This document shows, in pieces, positions 10,633 through 16,955 of a stretch of 53,068 bases of DNA. The position numbers were made by a program, and so were the translations under genes. This DNA is from a virus. Lineage: Duplodnaviria > Caudoviricetes. The stretch spans positions 1-53,068 of IMG/VR virus record IMGVR_UViG_3300037762_000317. One strand, written 5' to 3'. Every line of letters starts with the position of its first letter. Position 1 is the first letter of the stretch. Below the pieces are notes generated by a model that worked only from the letters and a program-made list of their open reading frames with translations, ran no database searches and was not told the DNA's origin.

Positions 10633-10854
10633 TCACTCGAGTCCCTCGCGGCGGCGCGCCTCGGCCAACAGGTTGTCGAATTCGGCTGGGTACCGGTCAC
10701 GTAATGCGGCGAGCGCGGCGCTGTAGGCGCGGCTGTCGACCCTTGCAGCGTTCGGGTCGCGTTTCCTCCCGGATCCGCGTGGCTGGCCGCGCGGCGGCCG
10801 TTTCATCGGTTTCATCGGCGCGGCGGGTTCAGTCTTGTCGACCCATGTGCTCAC
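10633..10854 (-). CDS. hypothetical basic protein
   Basis: GTG start overlaps the excisionase stop; ...ALAALRDRYPAEFDNLLAEARRREGL. Confidence 0.6.
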   Translation of the reverse strand: MSTWVDKTEPAAPMKPMKRPPRGQPRGSGRKRDPNAARVDSRAYSAALAALRDRYPAEFDNLLAEARRREGLE

Positions 10855-11126
10855 GCGGCACCCGCTTTGAGGAGCCATTGTTCGAGGGCGTGGCGGGGGA
10901 TGCGGATGGCGCGGCCGTGGCGGAAGTTCCCGATTTCCCCGGACCGGCATTTGGCGCGGACGGAGTCCTCGGACAACGTCAACTCGGCGGCGGCCTCGGC
11001 GACGGTCAGCATCCCGCCGTCGAGCATCGGGGTGCGGTTCTCAGCTTCGGCGGTGAGCAGTCGGGTGAGGCGGTCGATGGCGGCTTCGAGCCGCTCGACC
11101 GCCAGCTCGTTGGCGGCGGCGGTCAC
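10851..11126 (-). CDS. xis: excisionase-family HTH protein
   Basis: MLTVAEAAAELTLSEDSVRAKCRSGEIGNFRHGRAIRIPRHALEQWL. Confidence 0.8.
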   Translation of the reverse strand: MTAAANELAVERLEAAIDRLTRLLTAEAENRTPMLDGGMLTVAEAAAELTLSEDSVRAKCRSGEIGNFRHGRAIRIPRHALEQWLLKAGAA

Positions 11127-11365
11127 GACACACCCGCCTCGTCGTATTCGCGGTAATCAAGATGCGGGATTCCGGCGATGACCATCTCGCCGCAGTAGCC
11201 GCAGTGGTACTGCCCGAGCGGCGCGCCGACGAGCTGCTGCGGTTCCCACGGCCATGGGCACGGCTCACCCTCAGACGTGAGCGGACCGGTGATGTCGTCA
11301 CGGGGCAGCACGAGGTCAACCGCGTCCTTCGGCTCGATCTCGGCCCACGAACGAACTGCAGTCAT
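11123..11365 (-). CDS. hypothetical zinc-ribbon protein
   Basis: CPWPWEP...YHCGYCGEMV. Confidence 0.65.
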   Translation of the reverse strand: MTAVRSWAEIEPKDAVDLVLPRDDITGPLTSEGEPCPWPWEPQQLVGAPLGQYHCGYCGEMVIAGIPHLDYREYDEAGVS

Positions 11366-11610
11366 CAGTGGCCGCCGTGTTCGCTTGGGCACACGTGCCG
11401 CCCGGTGGTGTGGTCGTGCATGCCGTGCGTGGTCGCGTCACACGTGGGCTGGCTGGTGGGGTCTTCGCCGACCGCGTCGACGGGCACCGTGTCAGCCGGA
11501 TGCTGTTCGACAGGTTGGTCGGCGGGTTGGGCGCATCCGGTGAGGAGGGTGAGGGTGGTTGCGGCGGCGACGACGAAACGCTTCACGATGCGTCCTGTTC
11601 TGTGAGTCAT
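11365..11610 (-). CDS. putative lipoprotein
   Basis: signal peptide ending in lipobox LTG-C; ATGA-coupled to the Tas-like ORF. Confidence 0.65.
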   Translation of the reverse strand: MTHRTGRIVKRFVVAAATTLTLLTGCAQPADQPVEQHPADTVPVDAVGEDPTSQPTCDATTHGMHDHTTGRHVCPSEHGGH

Positions 11611-13085
11611 GCGGCACCCCCAGCGCGGCGAGGATGGGACTCGGATGGTCTATGGCTGGGGGTGCCGCCTCCCGACGAATGGGCAGTGGGCGTCGCGGCG
11701 TCACTGGTCGGGAGTTCTTCGCCCCCACCAGCGGAAGCCCGCTGGGTGCCGAGCGCCACATGGCCGGTGGGGGCGTCTCCCGGCGCCCCTTGTATGGGTG
11801 CCGCTACTTCGCTGGCCGGGAGGGTTCTTCGTGCTTCGCGCCACAGGTCGAGCAGGATGCGTTTGGACACGAGGCGCATGGCGCGGGCGTGCTTGTGTCC
11901 GTCGCTCAGCGGCGACCCGACCGCGGCAGGGTCACCCTTCGGGCCGCAGCGCTTGCACTCGACTGGGTGGACGGCGTCGGCGTACTTCGCGCGCCCGTCG
12001 TCGTAGACGTCGCGGTAGGGCGACCGCCGCTTGGTCGACGGCGGGCCGATCTGCTTGATGCAGGACTCGGCGACGACGTAGACGCGGGACTTGGCTTCGG
12101 TCGACCAATTCGCCCGCTGGCCGCGTGCGCGGGTCGGCGCCACCCCGACGCAAGCTATGTGGTCGTCGGTCTCCTGGTGGTCGGGGTGGCGTCCGTCATC
12201 CCCATGGTTCCCCTGGGCATCGATCCGAACGTGGGGGATGACGTGTAACCCGCAGTAGGCCCATAGCTTCGCGGGGTTCAGGCGGGTGGCGGGGTCGCCG
12301 ATCGCGGCGATAAGCCGTGCGGCCTGTTTCTCGCCGACGCCGACGTTGTCCTTCACCCACTGCGCGAGATAATGGCGGCGCATCGCCCGTTTGAGCATGA
12401 GCGTGGCGCCGTGCTCCATCGCCTGGATCTGCCCGAGCATGTCCCGCATCGCGCCGACTTCCGGGAGCCCTTCGGGGAGGCCCTTGCCGTGGGTGACGCC
12501 GTCGACCTCCCACGTGGTGGTCAGTGAGCGGATGCGGTTTTCGTGGGCGATGCGGACCTGTTCGATGTCGCCGAGCAGGTCGGCGTGGACGAGCAGCAGC
12601 GCGTCCTCCACCCCCCTGGCGCTCCCGATCTGGGCGTCGTGCGCGTCTTGGCCTTCGGGGGATGGAGGACCGCCACCGACGGAACTTGAATGGTCGTCGC
12701 TCGGTCGATGGTCGGTGGCGGCCACGACACATGCTTGGTCGTCGCGGATGGAATGGTGACCGCCACCGACGTCCGCACGTTGGGCATCCAGCAAGGTCTG
12801 GTCGGTGGCGGCCACGCTCGTTGTTTGGGCATCGACAGCTCGCTGGTGACCGCCACCAACGATGCGCCATTGGGCATCGCGCGCAGTGTGGTCGGTGGCG
12901 GCCACGGGCGGGATTTGGGTGCCGCATGTGCAATGGTGGCCGCCATCGACGCAGGGGCTTTGGGCGTCGGTGCCAGGATGGTCGATGGCGGCCACGAAAG
13001 GAACATGGGTCTCGTCTGTTGCTTGGTGACCGCCACGACCGTCCACCGACTGGATATCGCGGTCATGATGGATCGTGGCGGTCAT
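11607..13085 (-). CDS. tasA: TasA-like Nop/IS110-Tnp-domain RNA-binding protein with no nuclease domain; folded core about 12611-11830, remainder is translated guide array
   Basis: coiled coil DIEQVRIAHENRIRSL, then GVGEKQAARLIAAIGDP...LWAYCGLHV...RGQRANWS...VAESCIK...SPYRDVYD...GHKHARAMRLVSKRILLDLW; no RuvC DEDD or HNH domain; embedded dual-spacer array. Confidence 0.8.
   Translation of the reverse strand: MTATIHHDRDIQSVDGRGGHQATDETHVPFVAAIDHPGTDAQSPCVDGGHHCTCGTQIPPVAATDHTARDAQWRIVGGGHQRAVDAQTTSVAATDQTLLDAQRADVGGGHHSIRDDQACVVAATDHRPSDDHSSSVGGGPPSPEGQDAHDAQIGSARGVEDALLLVHADLLGDIEQVRIAHENRIRSLTTTWEVDGVTHGKGLPEGLPEVGAMRDMLGQIQAMEHGATLMLKRAMRRHYLAQWVKDNVGVGEKQAARLIAAIGDPATRLNPAKLWAYCGLHVIPHVRIDAQGNHGDDGRHPDHQETDDHIACVGVAPTRARGQRANWSTEAKSRVYVVAESCIKQIGPPSTKRRSPYRDVYDDGRAKYADAVHPVECKRCGPKGDPAAVGSPLSDGHKHARAMRLVSKRILLDLWREARRTLPASEVAAPIQGAPGDAPTGHVALGTQRASAGGGEELPTSDAATPTAHSSGGGTPSHRPSESHPRRAGGAA
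11611..11822 (-). ncRNA. TIGR-like array block 3: 4 stem-loop units in the 3' end of the ORF
   Basis: four CCA-N9-CGNNNCCCA-N9-CG units, each closed by its own 8-14-bp inverted repeat (11611-11668, 11669-11714, 11720-11775, 11777-11822). Confidence 0.85.
12138..12243 (-). ncRNA. TIGR-like array block 2: 2 stem-loop units inserted in frame inside the Nop domain
   Basis: CGTCATCCCCCA-cgttcggat-CGATGCCCA-ggggaacca-TGGGGATGACG and CGCCACCCCGACCA-ccaggagac-CGACGACCA-catagcttg-CGTCGGGGTGGCG. Confidence 0.8.
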
Positions 13086-13086
13086 G
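12604..13086 (-). ncRNA. TIGR-like array block 1: 10 dual-spacer units (9 at an exact 45-bp period)
   Basis: 18-nt edge repeats ending CCA, 9-nt spacer A, 9-nt loop repeat CGATGCCCA-like, 9-nt spacer B; all spacers different. Confidence 0.88.
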
Positions 13087-13549
13087 AGCGCATCACATCC
13101 TCAACAAGGCCGTCGTCGAGATCGCCGACCGTCACCGCGCCCGCCTTCGCCATCTCACCGCGAAGCCGGTCGTAGCGGTCAGCGAACGTAGAGTTCCGAG
13201 CCGCCCGCTCGCGGTACTGGTCAGCGATGAATTCAACCTCCGCAGCGGTGCAGTCGCCGAGGCGCTTCCACTGCGGCACCCACACCTGCCAGACCTTCGG
13301 GTTCGCCACATGTGGACGTGCCCGCGCGTACTTCGACTCGCCCTGCGCTGGCGCCGGTGCCACTGAGGTCCGCTGGCGTATATCAGCGAGCCGATGGCGT
13401 GCGAGCCGATGGCGTGCCGCCTCACGGACCGCCCACACGATCAACTCGTCGCGTTGGTCGTCGTTGATATTCGGCAGGACCTTCTCGGAGATCTCATCGG
13501 GTCCGACCGCCCCATCGGCGATCGCGTCATCGATCAGCTCATTAAGCAT
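13082..13549 (-). CDS. hypothetical protein directly upstream of and coupled to tasA (candidate accessory factor)
   Basis: ...WKRLGDCTAAEVEFIADQY...YDRLRGEM...VTVGDL; stop overlaps the ATG of the Tas-like ORF. Confidence 0.7.
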   Translation of the reverse strand: MLNELIDDAIADGAVGPDEISEKVLPNINDDQRDELIVWAVREAARHRLARHRLADIRQRTSVAPAPAQGESKYARARPHVANPKVWQVWVPQWKRLGDCTAAEVEFIADQYRERAARNSTFADRYDRLRGEMAKAGAVTVGDLDDGLVEDVMRS

Positions 13550-13818
13550 TACGACAGCACCTCGTAGGCCGCTTCGAGCGTGTCGGGCGGCACGGACCGA
13601 AAGCCTGGGATGTCGTCGGCGAGCACGGCGGCCCAGCCGGGGAACACATGCTCTTCGCCTTCGGCGGTATGAATGACGAGGGTGCGGCGGGTGTCGCCGA
13701 TGGTGGGCGTGAAGTCATAGGCGGCCATGCCGAGGGCGACCAGTTCGCGGAGCGCTTCACGGGTGTCGTCCCAGGTGACTGCGTGGGCTAGCAGCGGCTT
13801 GTGGCGGACGCGCATCAC
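13549..13818 (-). CDS. conserved small phage protein
   Basis: RHKPLLAHAVTW...LVIHTAEG...GFRSVPPDTLEAAYE resembles the widespread KKPV..TLEG..GE.YP..F..TYE phage family. Confidence 0.65.
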   Translation of the reverse strand: MMRVRHKPLLAHAVTWDDTREALRELVALGMAAYDFTPTIGDTRRTLVIHTAEGEEHVFPGWAAVLADDIPGFRSVPPDTLEAAYEVLS

Positions 13819-14072
13819 TGAGCCACCGCTTCGGCGTCAGGGTCGGTGAGCGCTTCCATGACCGCGTCGTCGCGGACGCCCAACGCGACGGCGATCTCGT
13901 GGCCGACGTCCCACGTCATCGGACGCGACTGGTTGATGACCAGCGACAGGGTGCTGCGGGAGATGTTCGTCTCGTCCGCGAGCTGCGTGATCGTCATGCC
14001 GCGCTCGCGGAGGAACTGGCGGATCGGCCCTTCGAGCGGCCGGTAGCGGGTTCTGTGTCGGCGGTCGTTCAT
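13815..14072 (-). CDS. Cro-like XRE HTH regulator
   Basis: LRERGMTITQLADETNISRSTLSLVINQSR; divergent from the repressor; first gene of the early arm. Confidence 0.85.
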   Translation of the reverse strand: MNDRRHRTRYRPLEGPIRQFLRERGMTITQLADETNISRSTLSLVINQSRPMTWDVGHEIAVALGVRDDAVMEALTDPDAEAVAQ

Positions 14073-14078
14073 GCGGTC

Positions 14079-14107
14079 AACGTAGCGCCGATCGCAGCGC
14101 AACGCAA
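14079..14107 (-). promoter_or_regulatory. early lytic promoter (leaderless)
   Basis: TTGCGT-N17-TACGTT then 6 nt to the cro ATG. Confidence 0.65.
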
Positions 14108-14231: not shown

Positions 14232-14570
14232 ATGCGACCACACCTCGGAGATCTGATCCGCGCCATGCGCGAAGATCGGGGTCTCAGCATGCGCGAGCTG
14301 GCACGCCGTTCCAACGTCGACATCTCGACGTTGTCGCGGTTGGAGTCACACACCCACGCGACGATGACACGGGAGAACACCTCACGAGTCGCGCAGGCCC
14401 TCGGAACGACCGTCGAGGAGGTCGAACGTCGGCTCGGTCACAACAACGACCAACCGGCCCCACGTCGCTGGCCGAGCGTGGAAGAGGTCATCGAGCGGGA
14501 CCGGGAGCTCACTGCGGTTCAGAAGGCCGCTCTGGTCGCTCACTATCGGTCGTACGTCCACAGGCGATGA
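14232..14570 (+). CDS. immunity repressor (XRE HTH)
   Basis: LGDLIRAMREDRGLSMRELARRSNVDISTLSRLE; divergent from cro, upstream of the integrase. Confidence 0.85.
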   Translation: MRPHLGDLIRAMREDRGLSMRELARRSNVDISTLSRLESHTHATMTRENTSRVAQALGTTVEEVERRLGHNNDQPAPRRWPSVEEVIERDRELTAVQKAALVAHYRSYVHRR

Positions 14571-15496: not shown

Positions 15497-15769
15497 GTGA
15501 GCGGTCATGCCCCAATGACGGCCGGCGAACTGCGACAGGTGCTTGCGAACTATCCCGACTCCACCCGCATCGTGCTGGCGAAGGACGCTGAGGGCAACGG
15601 ATATAGCCCACTGTATGAGGTCGTCGTGGCGATGTATGCCGCTGAGACGACGTGGTCGGGCGAGTACTTCCTGCGCGAGCGGGAGCGCCTTGCGCAGGAG
15701 GATCCGGACGACTGGGATCCTGCGCCGGATGATGCGGTTGAGGCCCTGTTTCTGTGGCCGGTCAACTGA
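15497..15769 (+). CDS. conserved actinophage protein
   Basis: MTAGELRQVLANYP...VLAKDAEGNGYSPL...LFLWPVN pattern. Confidence 0.7.
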   Translation: MSGHAPMTAGELRQVLANYPDSTRIVLAKDAEGNGYSPLYEVVVAMYAAETTWSGEYFLRERERLAQEDPDDWDPAPDDAVEALFLWPVN

Positions 15770-15770
15770 C

Positions 15771-16955
15771 GTGAGTGTGCATAAGTATGTCGACGCGGGG
15801 GGCCATGCGCGGTGGCGGGTCAACTACGAGCTGCCACCCCACTCGGAAACTGGCAAGCGGCGGAAGTCCACGAAACGCGGGTTCCCGACGAAGCGTGCCG
15901 CGAAGGTGTGGGAGGACGGGTTGCGTGGGCGCATCGCGCAGGGCGACATCCCGCCGGTGCGTGAGCGACGGCAGACGGTCGGCGGCTATCTGCGCGGCTG
16001 GTATGCGGGCGTCGGCGGGAAAGAGACGTGGCGTGCGCATTGCCGCGACATGTGCGAGTGGTACGTGCTCCCGCATCTCGGGGGCTTCCCGCTCGACCAG
16101 CTCGAGCCGGAGCATGTCGACGCGTGTTACCGGCTGCTCGAGCGCGGCGGGTGGCGGCGCAGGACAGCGAAAGGCAAGCTGCGGGGCGTGGGGCCGCTGG
16201 CGCCGAAGACGGTCCGCAACGTCCACATCGTCCTGCACCGCGCCCTCGCTGTAGCGGTCGAACGGAAGCGTCTGCGCCGCAATGTGGCGAGTCTGGCGCA
16301 CCCGCCGACGCAGAAGGCCGCCAAGTCGCGGAACGCCGAGCGGGTGTGGACCCCCGAGCAGCTGCAGGCGTGGCTGGCGCACATCGCCGGCGACCGGCTA
16401 TACGGGGTGTGGTATCTCGCGATGACGACGGGGATGCGCCGCGGCGAGCTCGCCGGCCTGCACTGGGTCGACGTCGACCTTGAGTCTGGGACTGTCAGGG
16501 TGCGGTGGGAGCTGACCGTCGTGGACAACCGTCCGACGTGGGTGGACGGCGCCAAGACCACGGCGGGGGAGCGGACCGTCGACCTCGACGCGCGGACTGT
16601 GGAGGTTCTAAGGACCCATCACGCCCGTTTGTCGCAAGAAAAGCTGGCGTGCGGCCCCGCGTACCACGATGAGAACCTGGTGGTGTGTTGGGAAGACGGG
16701 ACGCTGATGCATCCGGACCGGCTGTTACGCGCCCTGTATCGGCACGCGAAGGCGCTCGATCTGCCGAGGATCAACGTGCATGGCCTACGGCATTCCTACG
16801 CGACGATCGCGCTCGACAGCGGGGAGGATCACAAGGTGGTGTCGGAGCGGTTGGGGCACGCGTCGGCGGCGACGACGATGGACGTCTACCGGCATGTGTC
16901 CGACGCGCAGCATCGAGCCGCCGCCGAACGCATAGCGAAAAGGATCACCGGATGA
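15771..16955 (+). CDS. int: tyrosine integrase
   Basis: arm-binding N-terminus (TGKRRKSTKRGFPTKRAA); catalytic TGMRRGE, KT, HGLRHS, LGH, DVYRH. Confidence 0.95.
   Translation: MSVHKYVDAGGHARWRVNYELPPHSETGKRRKSTKRGFPTKRAAKVWEDGLRGRIAQGDIPPVRERRQTVGGYLRGWYAGVGGKETWRAHCRDMCEWYVLPHLGGFPLDQLEPEHVDACYRLLERGGWRRRTAKGKLRGVGPLAPKTVRNVHIVLHRALAVAVERKRLRRNVASLAHPPTQKAAKSRNAERVWTPEQLQAWLAHIAGDRLYGVWYLAMTTGMRRGELAGLHWVDVDLESGTVRVRWELTVVDNRPTWVDGAKTTAGERTVDLDARTVEVLRTHHARLSQEKLACGPAYHDENLVVCWEDGTLMHPDRLLRALYRHAKALDLPRINVHGLRHSYATIALDSGEDHKVVSERLGHASAATTMDVYRHVSDAQHRAAAERIAKRITG

Follow-up and report, generated by a model that had tools for sequence, protein, structure and literature searches.

The complete viral record IMGVR_UViG_3300037762_000317, 53,068 bases long and analysed here over its full length (the window), carries on its minus strand an open reading frame (ORF; 11607..13085, 492 codons plus stop, hence 492 aa) that encodes a nuclease-less TIGR-associated protein (TasA) of the stem-loop TIGR system. 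Besides the TasA core (11829..12611, minus strand; 261 aa comprising a coiled coil and a Nop/C-terminal domain), this frame holds about ten guide units on the 5' side, four on the 3' side and two midway through the Nop/C-terminal domain, all of them on the coding strand. The last two, which occupy the so-called wedge loop of the protein, are the main subject of this work.

The tas gene and its wedge loop

A profile built from the 261-aa core and five phage homologues matched, among the structures in the PDB, TIGR-TasR 9MTY, the TasR ribonucleoprotein of Faure et al. 2025 (PMC12045711), with an E-value of 1.4e-18, and TasH with an E-value of 1.1e-7; at E ≤ 1, IS621 was not matched by sequence. 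The AlphaFold2 model of the core (84-row alignment) has a mean predicted local distance difference test score (pLDDT) of 92.7, and its best match in a Foldseek search of the PDB is again 9MTY (E 4e-8, template modeling (TM) score 0.60-0.63), followed by TasH and, behind the latter, by the IS621 entries 8WT9/8WT6 (E 1e-3 to 4e-3). Thus, profile search, structure search and model agree on the coiled coil plus Nop/C-terminal domain of the Tas proteins. Since no HNH or RuvC nuclease domain was detected in Pfam at E ≤ 1, the gene is classed as TasA rather than as TasH or TasR. The 158 residues ahead of the core correspond to the array in translation.

Two other identities were considered. The sole Pfam match at E ≤ 1 is Transposase_20 (E 1.9e-4; aa 248-284, model positions 8-44 of 87), which ends where the insert described below begins, and the PHROGs match, phrog_4285 (E 1.3e-74, aa 154-422), bears the label "transposase". 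An IS110-family transposase would, however, require a DEDD/RuvC-like domain, and DEDD_Tnp_IS110 gave no Pfam match at E ≤ 1. For a Nop5/Nop56/58 protein of a box C/D small nucleolar ribonucleoprotein, a close match of fold would be expected; the Nop5 entries were found by Foldseek merely at E about 1-2 and a TM-score of about 0.3 (fibrillarin and L7Ae partners were not sought).

In the translated frame, the peptide ...LWAYCGLHV is followed by IPHVRIDAQGNHGDDGRHPDHQETDDHIACVGV and then by APTRARGQRANW..., and the DNA of the intervening segment consists of two hairpins. The preliminary description had reported here, at 12138-12243, two complete stem-loop units inserted in frame into a loop of the Nop domain, and this is confirmed. 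Unit 1 (12192..12245, minus strand) has a perfect stem of 10 bp (12243-12234 / 12203-12194), and unit 2 (12138..12191, minus strand) a stem of 12 bp that is 100% complementary (12191-12180 / 12149-12138), with 30 nt between the arms in either case. The loop of unit 1 is CA-CGTTCGGAT-CGATGCCCA-GGGGAACCA-T and reads in frame as HVRIDAQGNH; that of unit 2 is CA-CCAGGAGAC-CGACGACCA-CATAGCTTG-C and reads as HQETDDHIAC. The stems of both units differ from those of the 5' array, while the plan of the loop is alike. When the RNA sense strand of 12130-12250 is folded, both hairpins form, with a free energy of -53.5 kcal/mol (z -2.89), and 2 of 200 shuffled sequences fold equally well. The entire window contains nine perfect hairpins that combine a stem of at least 8 bp with a 30-nt loop, neither longer nor shorter, and none of the nine lies outside 11611-12995, as compared to a mean of 1.7 and a maximum of 6 in 100 dinucleotide shuffles; for stems of at least 10 bp, seven are observed and the shuffles yield a mean of 0.18.

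The position of the insert in the protein follows from the same profile alignment. Because the motif WAYAGY(S/G)V aligns with residues 206-213 of 9MTY and the motif GVAPKRxRG...NW from residue 216 onward, the insert is placed between residues 213 and 216, that is, within the segment G210-K230 that is given as the wedge of TaTasR in the methods of a recent preprint (Xu et al., bioRxiv 10.64898/2026.09.09.750476, September 2026). In the AlphaFold2 model, the strands 125-128 (IPHV) and 154-157 (CVGV) form the base of the wedge hairpin, and the block of 25 residues between them has a pLDDT of 56-64, against at least 90 in the remainder of the protein. The protein is thus predicted to tolerate the insert as a disordered 25-residue surface loop at the tip of the wedge beta-hairpin, which is what the preliminary description had expected of a structure prediction. 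The 3' arm of unit 2 also encodes the VGVA of the conserved GVAP. The same was seen for the last wedge unit of other loci (12138-12149 here, 2053-2065 in L002, 2056-2068 in L003): the 3' arm encodes the conserved (V)GVAP with which the chain re-enters the Nop fold, so that one arm is fixed by protein conservation and the 5' arm is forced to its complement (..HPD.. or ..TPT..).

The guide units as an RNA family

The 5' array (12611..13082, minus strand) has a period of 45 nt, and all its units are in the tas reading frame. Five strong hairpin units lie at 13029-13082, 12939-12992, 12849-12902, 12759-12812 and 12669-12722, a weaker one lies at 12611-12662, and between the strong units there are four interleaved loops with an identical motif. 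Each period consists of a 15-nt arm, which alternates with its complement, and a 30-nt segment CA-N9-CG(A/G)NNNCCA-N9-C; hence, every guide loop is flanked by complementary arms. It follows that neighbouring hairpins of the 5' array are mutually exclusive and, as nine or ten loops all carry the motif, the transcript would need two alternative folding registers to release all of them. The four 3' units (11777-11822, 11721-11774, 11669-11714 and 11613-11666, minus strand) span 11613..11822 and continue within the open frame up to the stop codon. In the window as a whole, 15 loops fit the pattern CA-N9-CG....CCA-N9-C/T.

The plan of the unit is not peculiar to this phage. From 271 units of 51 loci, a consensus of C1 A2, N9, CGAYRCCCA, N9 and C30 was obtained, with the initial CA present in 235 loops. 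A guide unit is, accordingly, a stem of about 10-15 bp that closes a 30-nt loop CA-N9-CGAYRCCCA-N9-C, in which two 9-nt spacers surround a conserved 9-nt centre. Stem-loop tigRNAs have been described as carrying two spacers of 8-12 nt, a centre of mostly 9 nt and variable palindromic stems, and the 271-unit consensus agrees with this description: tandem units with palindromic stems, spacers of about 9 nt and a centre of about 9 nt lie beside the tas gene.

For a covariance model (R1), 120 units were taken from other phage loci, all of them from outside the tas core and none from the window, and the window was scanned with the filters off. The scan returned 12 sites at E ≤ 3.5e-4, all on the minus strand within 11613-13082, whereas the best match outside the locus reached only E 0.024. 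Both wedge units are among the 12 sites: unit 2 with 43.6 bits (E 6.1e-8) and unit 1 with 29.4 bits (E 1.3e-4). The assignment of these hairpins as guide units in the preliminary description is thereby borne out by a model that owes nothing to this phage, and the match places them in the RNA family of the arrays found beside tas genes. Covariation was seen in 12 of 12 stem pairs, with a score of 0.855 against 0.195 for shuffles and at most 0.18 with slid partners. When units were identified solely by their loop motif (n=209), positions 1-10 of the stems contained 83 G.U and 27 A.C pairs, an excess that points to the coding strand as the RNA that folds.

Within the 120-unit alignment, both spacers have the same flanks, C-CA before and C-G after, so that the loop contains CCA-N9-CG twice in a pseudo-symmetric arrangement, and the closing pair is C-G in 110 of the 120 units. 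The only match in Rfam was that of a miRNA model to the first hairpin of the array, and its 26.8 bits are below threshold, the gathering score being 90.

Variation among homologues, reading phase and phage context

A tblastn search found the gene in 90 phage records (83 from Mycobacterium, 5 from Gordonia and one each from Arthrobacter and Rhodococcus), and a protein search yielded 1,595 proteins at E ≤ 1e-5, entries from Streptomyces and Kitasatospora included. In a seven-way alignment, the proteins of the Mycobacterium phages Jerm2, Euphoria, Scowl and prophiFSAT01-1 are devoid of the insert; those of the Gordonia phages Spooky and BENtherdunthat have an insert of similar length, the sequence of which is unrelated except for the final VGVAP. 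Homologues in cluster-A-like Mycobacterium phages (such as Euphoria gp70 and Jerm2 gp72) and in Gordonia phages are labelled, in different records, as transposase, hypothetical protein, DNA binding or helix-turn-helix DNA binding domain protein. The mycobacteriophage gene is preceded by a gap of about 335 nt, in which some three guide hairpins lie, and several loci have extra guide hairpins at a distance from tas, be it within neighbouring genes, between them or on the downstream side (L003, 80-553; L045, 3344-3706; L010, 3443-3544; L015, 3345-3552).

For 52 loci and the window (53 sequences), the length of the wedge loop was taken as the distance from the anchor W.Y.G to the anchor G...NW. 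It amounts to 9-13 aa in 26 of them, to 28-29 aa in 2, to 42-55 aa in 16, this phage among them, and to 64-69 aa in 3; the anchors were not found in the remaining 6. The DNA of the insert was scanned for hairpins in 24 of the 53 sequences, leaving aside L012, which is identical to L003, and most loci with zero insert. One hairpin was found in both loci with 28-29 aa, two in 12 of the 15 loci with 42-55 aa (L002, L011 and L048 show one at the threshold of the scan), three in all 3 loci with 64-69 aa, and none in 3 of 4 short-loop loci, the fourth, L047, having a single 7-bp match with a 32-nt loop that lacks the motif. The stems in these inserts comprise 8-15 bp and the loops are nearly always 30 nt long and carry the motif. 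Both anchors are present in 116 of the 120 closest proteins, the inserts of which comprise 20-107 aa: 46 aa in 71 cases, 62-70 in 12, 81-82 in two, 90 in one and 107 in one. Since the peptide signature [HQ]xxx[DE][ATPSD][HQ] tracks length only loosely in homologues known as protein alone, it was not used to count units. Thus, neither the sequence nor the length of the loop is conserved, and the length is quantised, corresponding to 0, 1, 2 or 3 hairpins in the loci with DNA. The insert of fixed length and sequence that would have spoken against the preliminary description was not encountered; the alignment with homologues shows the variation in unit number for which that description had looked.

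The length class changes at scattered places in the phylogeny. When a FastTree tree was computed from the flanking residues with the insert removed (163 rows, midpoint root), no fewer than 33 changes were required to explain the five classes, a count inflated by weak branches, and the midpoint root leaves their direction unsettled. Several well-supported neighbours differ in class, namely, L014 (29) and the L011 group (48) with a support of 99, P0105 (43) and L009 (28) with 95, and P0104 (107) and P0114 (47) with 95. The scatter implies that unit number changes at this internal site and not only at the ends of arrays. The commonest state is two units; several 0-unit forms are nested among the 2-unit forms, and some of them may be losses.

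Spacers vary as well. BENtherdunthat (L003) and L020 are 94% identical in the flanking protein; at the DNA level, their cores show about 80% identity and their inserts 69%. Unit 1 has retained its stems and its centre, and each of its spacers differs at 5-6 of 9 positions. Across 815 pairs of units from the same locus, on average 13.3 of 18 spacer positions differ, with a minimum of 7. Recent duplication was considered as a source of units and rejected, as there are no fresh duplicates among these pairs. Of the proposal in the preliminary description that units are acquired at tolerant positions within the gene, one part is therefore retained, the change of unit number inside the gene rather than only at array ends; addition as the direction of change, and a mechanism of acquisition or duplication behind it, are conjectural.

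The units are not indifferent to the frame in which they lie. In 27 of 28 motif-defined wedge units, the loop is in phase 0, where CAN encodes His or Gln and the peptide takes the form [HQ]xxxD[AT][HQ]xxx. For all units inside the tas open frame (loci L002-L053 and this phage, n=128), the loop phases 0, 2 and 1 are represented 84, 43 and 1 times, against 22, 19 and 15 times for units outside the frame; the avoided phase 1 would place A at third codon positions (xCA, CGA, CCA). The ORF is, furthermore, linked to both neighbours by ATGA overlaps: its start lies on the stop of the upstream gene 13082-13549 (overlap 13082-13085, minus strand) and its stop on the ATG of the downstream gene 11365-11610 (overlap 11607-11610, minus strand), the product of the latter having a lipoprotein-like N-terminus (...LLTGC). 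These overlaps suggest that translation is coupled to both neighbours and, together with the phase bias, that the N- and C-terminal tails encoded by the arrays are really translated. Translation of array-encoded tails at such loci is described in the preprint.

The gene surroundings are those of a temperate phage. An integrase (15543-16955, plus strand), a divergent pair of helix-turn-helix regulators (14232-14570, plus strand; 13815-14102, minus strand) and an excisionase-like gene (10851-11126, minus strand) are present, and the ORF 11607-13085 is part of the early leftward operon of this temperate actinobacterial phage. A scan for sigma-70 consensus sequences on the minus strand between 11400 and 14300 revealed no internal promoter, such a scan being weak for actinobacteria.

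Origin and function of the wedge units, and relation to known systems

Taken together, these data make it probable that we are dealing with a TasA stem-loop TIGR locus in which guide hairpins are embedded in frame at the tip of the wedge and would act as guides for blocking transcription. The following sequence of events can be envisaged. The wedge peptide would be disordered, while the mRNA at the same point would fold into two guide hairpins. By analogy with BlTasA, the TasA of Bifidobacterium longum, and with other TasA or dead TasR proteins, the units would be cut out of a transcript that contains tas, or of one started internally, and loaded on a TasA dimer. The loaded TasA could then be led to DNA sites at which the two spacers find their matches, one on each strand, and would block transcription there rather than cut.

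Several points weigh against this reading. Expression, processing and loading of both wedge units are argued by analogy. When sequencing runs containing this sequence were sought, one DNA run, which may be that of the source sample, was listed and no RNA run. Unit 1 has a weak score, and its loop ends with T rather than C. The CUU motif at the stem base, which the preprint links to processing, is not obvious beside either wedge unit. A unit entered the model and the covariation count only if 6 of 8 Watson-Crick pairs were present; this raises the percentage paired artificially, though not the hits in the window. Finally, no target emerged when tandem matches of the 15 spacer pairs were sought in the phage's own genome outside the locus (both orders, gaps of 0-2, up to 3 mismatches): there were 5 matches at 3 mismatches, and scrambled spacers gave a mean of 4.8.

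The same observations have to be set against other explanations. The hairpins could descend from guide units and no longer serve as such; they would then act in cis within the tas mRNA, where they might, for instance, make ribosomes pause, admit an RNase or bind TasA and thereby set how much of the protein is made. Autoregulation of this kind is plausible inasmuch as the hairpins lie in mid-message and their excision would destroy the mRNA; the preprint, too, raises a link between maturation and translation, and the poorer fit of unit 1 to the model points the same way. Yet even distant homologues retain, at this site, the loop motif and a loop of precisely 30 nt, with spacers no less varied than those of the arrays, as would be expected of working guides, and the intragenic units of BlTasA were recovered by small-RNA sequencing of the ribonucleoprotein, so that an exclusive role in cis appears unlikely. 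If, alternatively, the insert were selected as protein, with a longer wedge whose [HQ]xxxD[AT][HQ] repeats contact RNA or DNA and with hairpins as a mere by-product of its origin, the phase bias would be accounted for, and it does indicate some coding-level constraint; however, the stems covary, with pairing kept while the encoded residues change, the loop is predicted to be disordered, and many homologues, including those of 83 mycobacteriophage records, do without any insert. We regard this explanation as very improbable. Chance palindromes, for which a high G+C content raises the background of short stems, are refuted by the shuffles, which produce a small fraction of the long-stemmed hairpins observed, all of these being in the locus, and by the independent covariance model that matches both wedge hairpins; the probability left to them is negligible.

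Guides embedded at the wedge tip could also have a bolder meaning, which we offer as a rather unlikely proposal. The guide array would have, in the wedge loop, a second point of growth that lies within the protein. Whole units, from 0 to about 6, would have been gained and lost there repeatedly, with tens of changes at the least in the 163 relatives; the process behind these changes would be directed to the site, would leave no duplicate spacers and may use the stems or Tas itself, a relative of IS110. As excision of the guides destroys the tas message, each transcript would yield either protein or wedge guides, and, if so, feedback between the effector and the guide supply would be built in. 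Irrespective of this proposal, the clade of actinobacterial phage TasA genes provides a natural series that is compact and confined to a single, fixed codon position. As even close relatives can be told apart by whole units and by their spacers, the turnover of guides can be followed on the protein tree, and the cost of dual coding, as RNA hairpin and as peptide, becomes measurable. The labels "transposase" and "hypothetical protein" in some Mycobacterium and Gordonia phage records can be corrected as well.

The TIGR-Tas systems and the stem-loop type of array were defined by Faure et al. (2025, Science, PMC12045711). The TasA of a Peromyscus leucopus gut contig described there has 13 stem-loops that are processed to single-hairpin RNAs bound by TasA; it shares with the phage locus the two 8-12-nt spacers, the box C/D-like flanks and the variable palindromic stems and differs, as far as the published description goes, in having sub-arrays parted by intergenic DNA instead of units within the Nop domain. 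TaTasR (9MTY) has the coiled coil and the Nop/C-terminal fold in common with the phage TasA, and its wedge loop parts the two strands of the DNA where the spacers form duplexes. Unlike the phage protein, it possesses a RuvC nuclease domain; its guides are of the dual-repeat kind, with 36 nt, and its wedge (G210-K230) is short and free of any insert.

With IS110/IS621, the relationship is limited to the C-terminal domain, as seen from the Transposase_20 match and the Foldseek hits to 8WT9/8WT6, and some homologues of the phage gene are labelled "transposase" in GenBank and in PHROG. In contrast to these elements, the phage TasA has no DEDD/RuvC domain detectable in Pfam and no bridge RNA, and its gene occupies a fixed place in phage genomes. 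The beta-sheet that bears the catalytic Ser in IS110 (described in PMC11213020) corresponds to the wedge that bears the guide units in the phage TasA.

The closest parallel is found in the preprint of Xu et al., which reports stem-loop tigRNAs situated within genes and places two such units in the wedge loop of BlTasA; according to the Extended Data legend, this loop overlaps two tigRNA coding regions. There, TasA is an RNA-guided repressor, and the acquisition of spacers by TIGR arrays is named as an open question, with no adaptation machinery known. BlTasA and the phage protein are both nuclease-less and belong to actinobacterial hosts, with units upstream of and inside a coding sequence the frame of which remains intact and the inserted peptide of which is disordered. 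As compared to the description of BlTasA, the phage locus has four extra 3' units in one open frame and a strict 45-nt interleaved 5' array, and the CUU stem-base motif of the preprint is not evident at its wedge units. The flanks of the phage units (CCA-N9-CG) also differ in letters from the CUU/UG box C/D of PateTasR given in the same preprint. Since the preprint describes this arrangement, the phage locus is a further example of a known one. Beyond that, and granted that the preprint may already show part of it, the present analysis adds the stepwise variation of unit number at a single site, its scatter over the protein tree, the fixed reading phase of the units and the lack of duplicate spacers among them.

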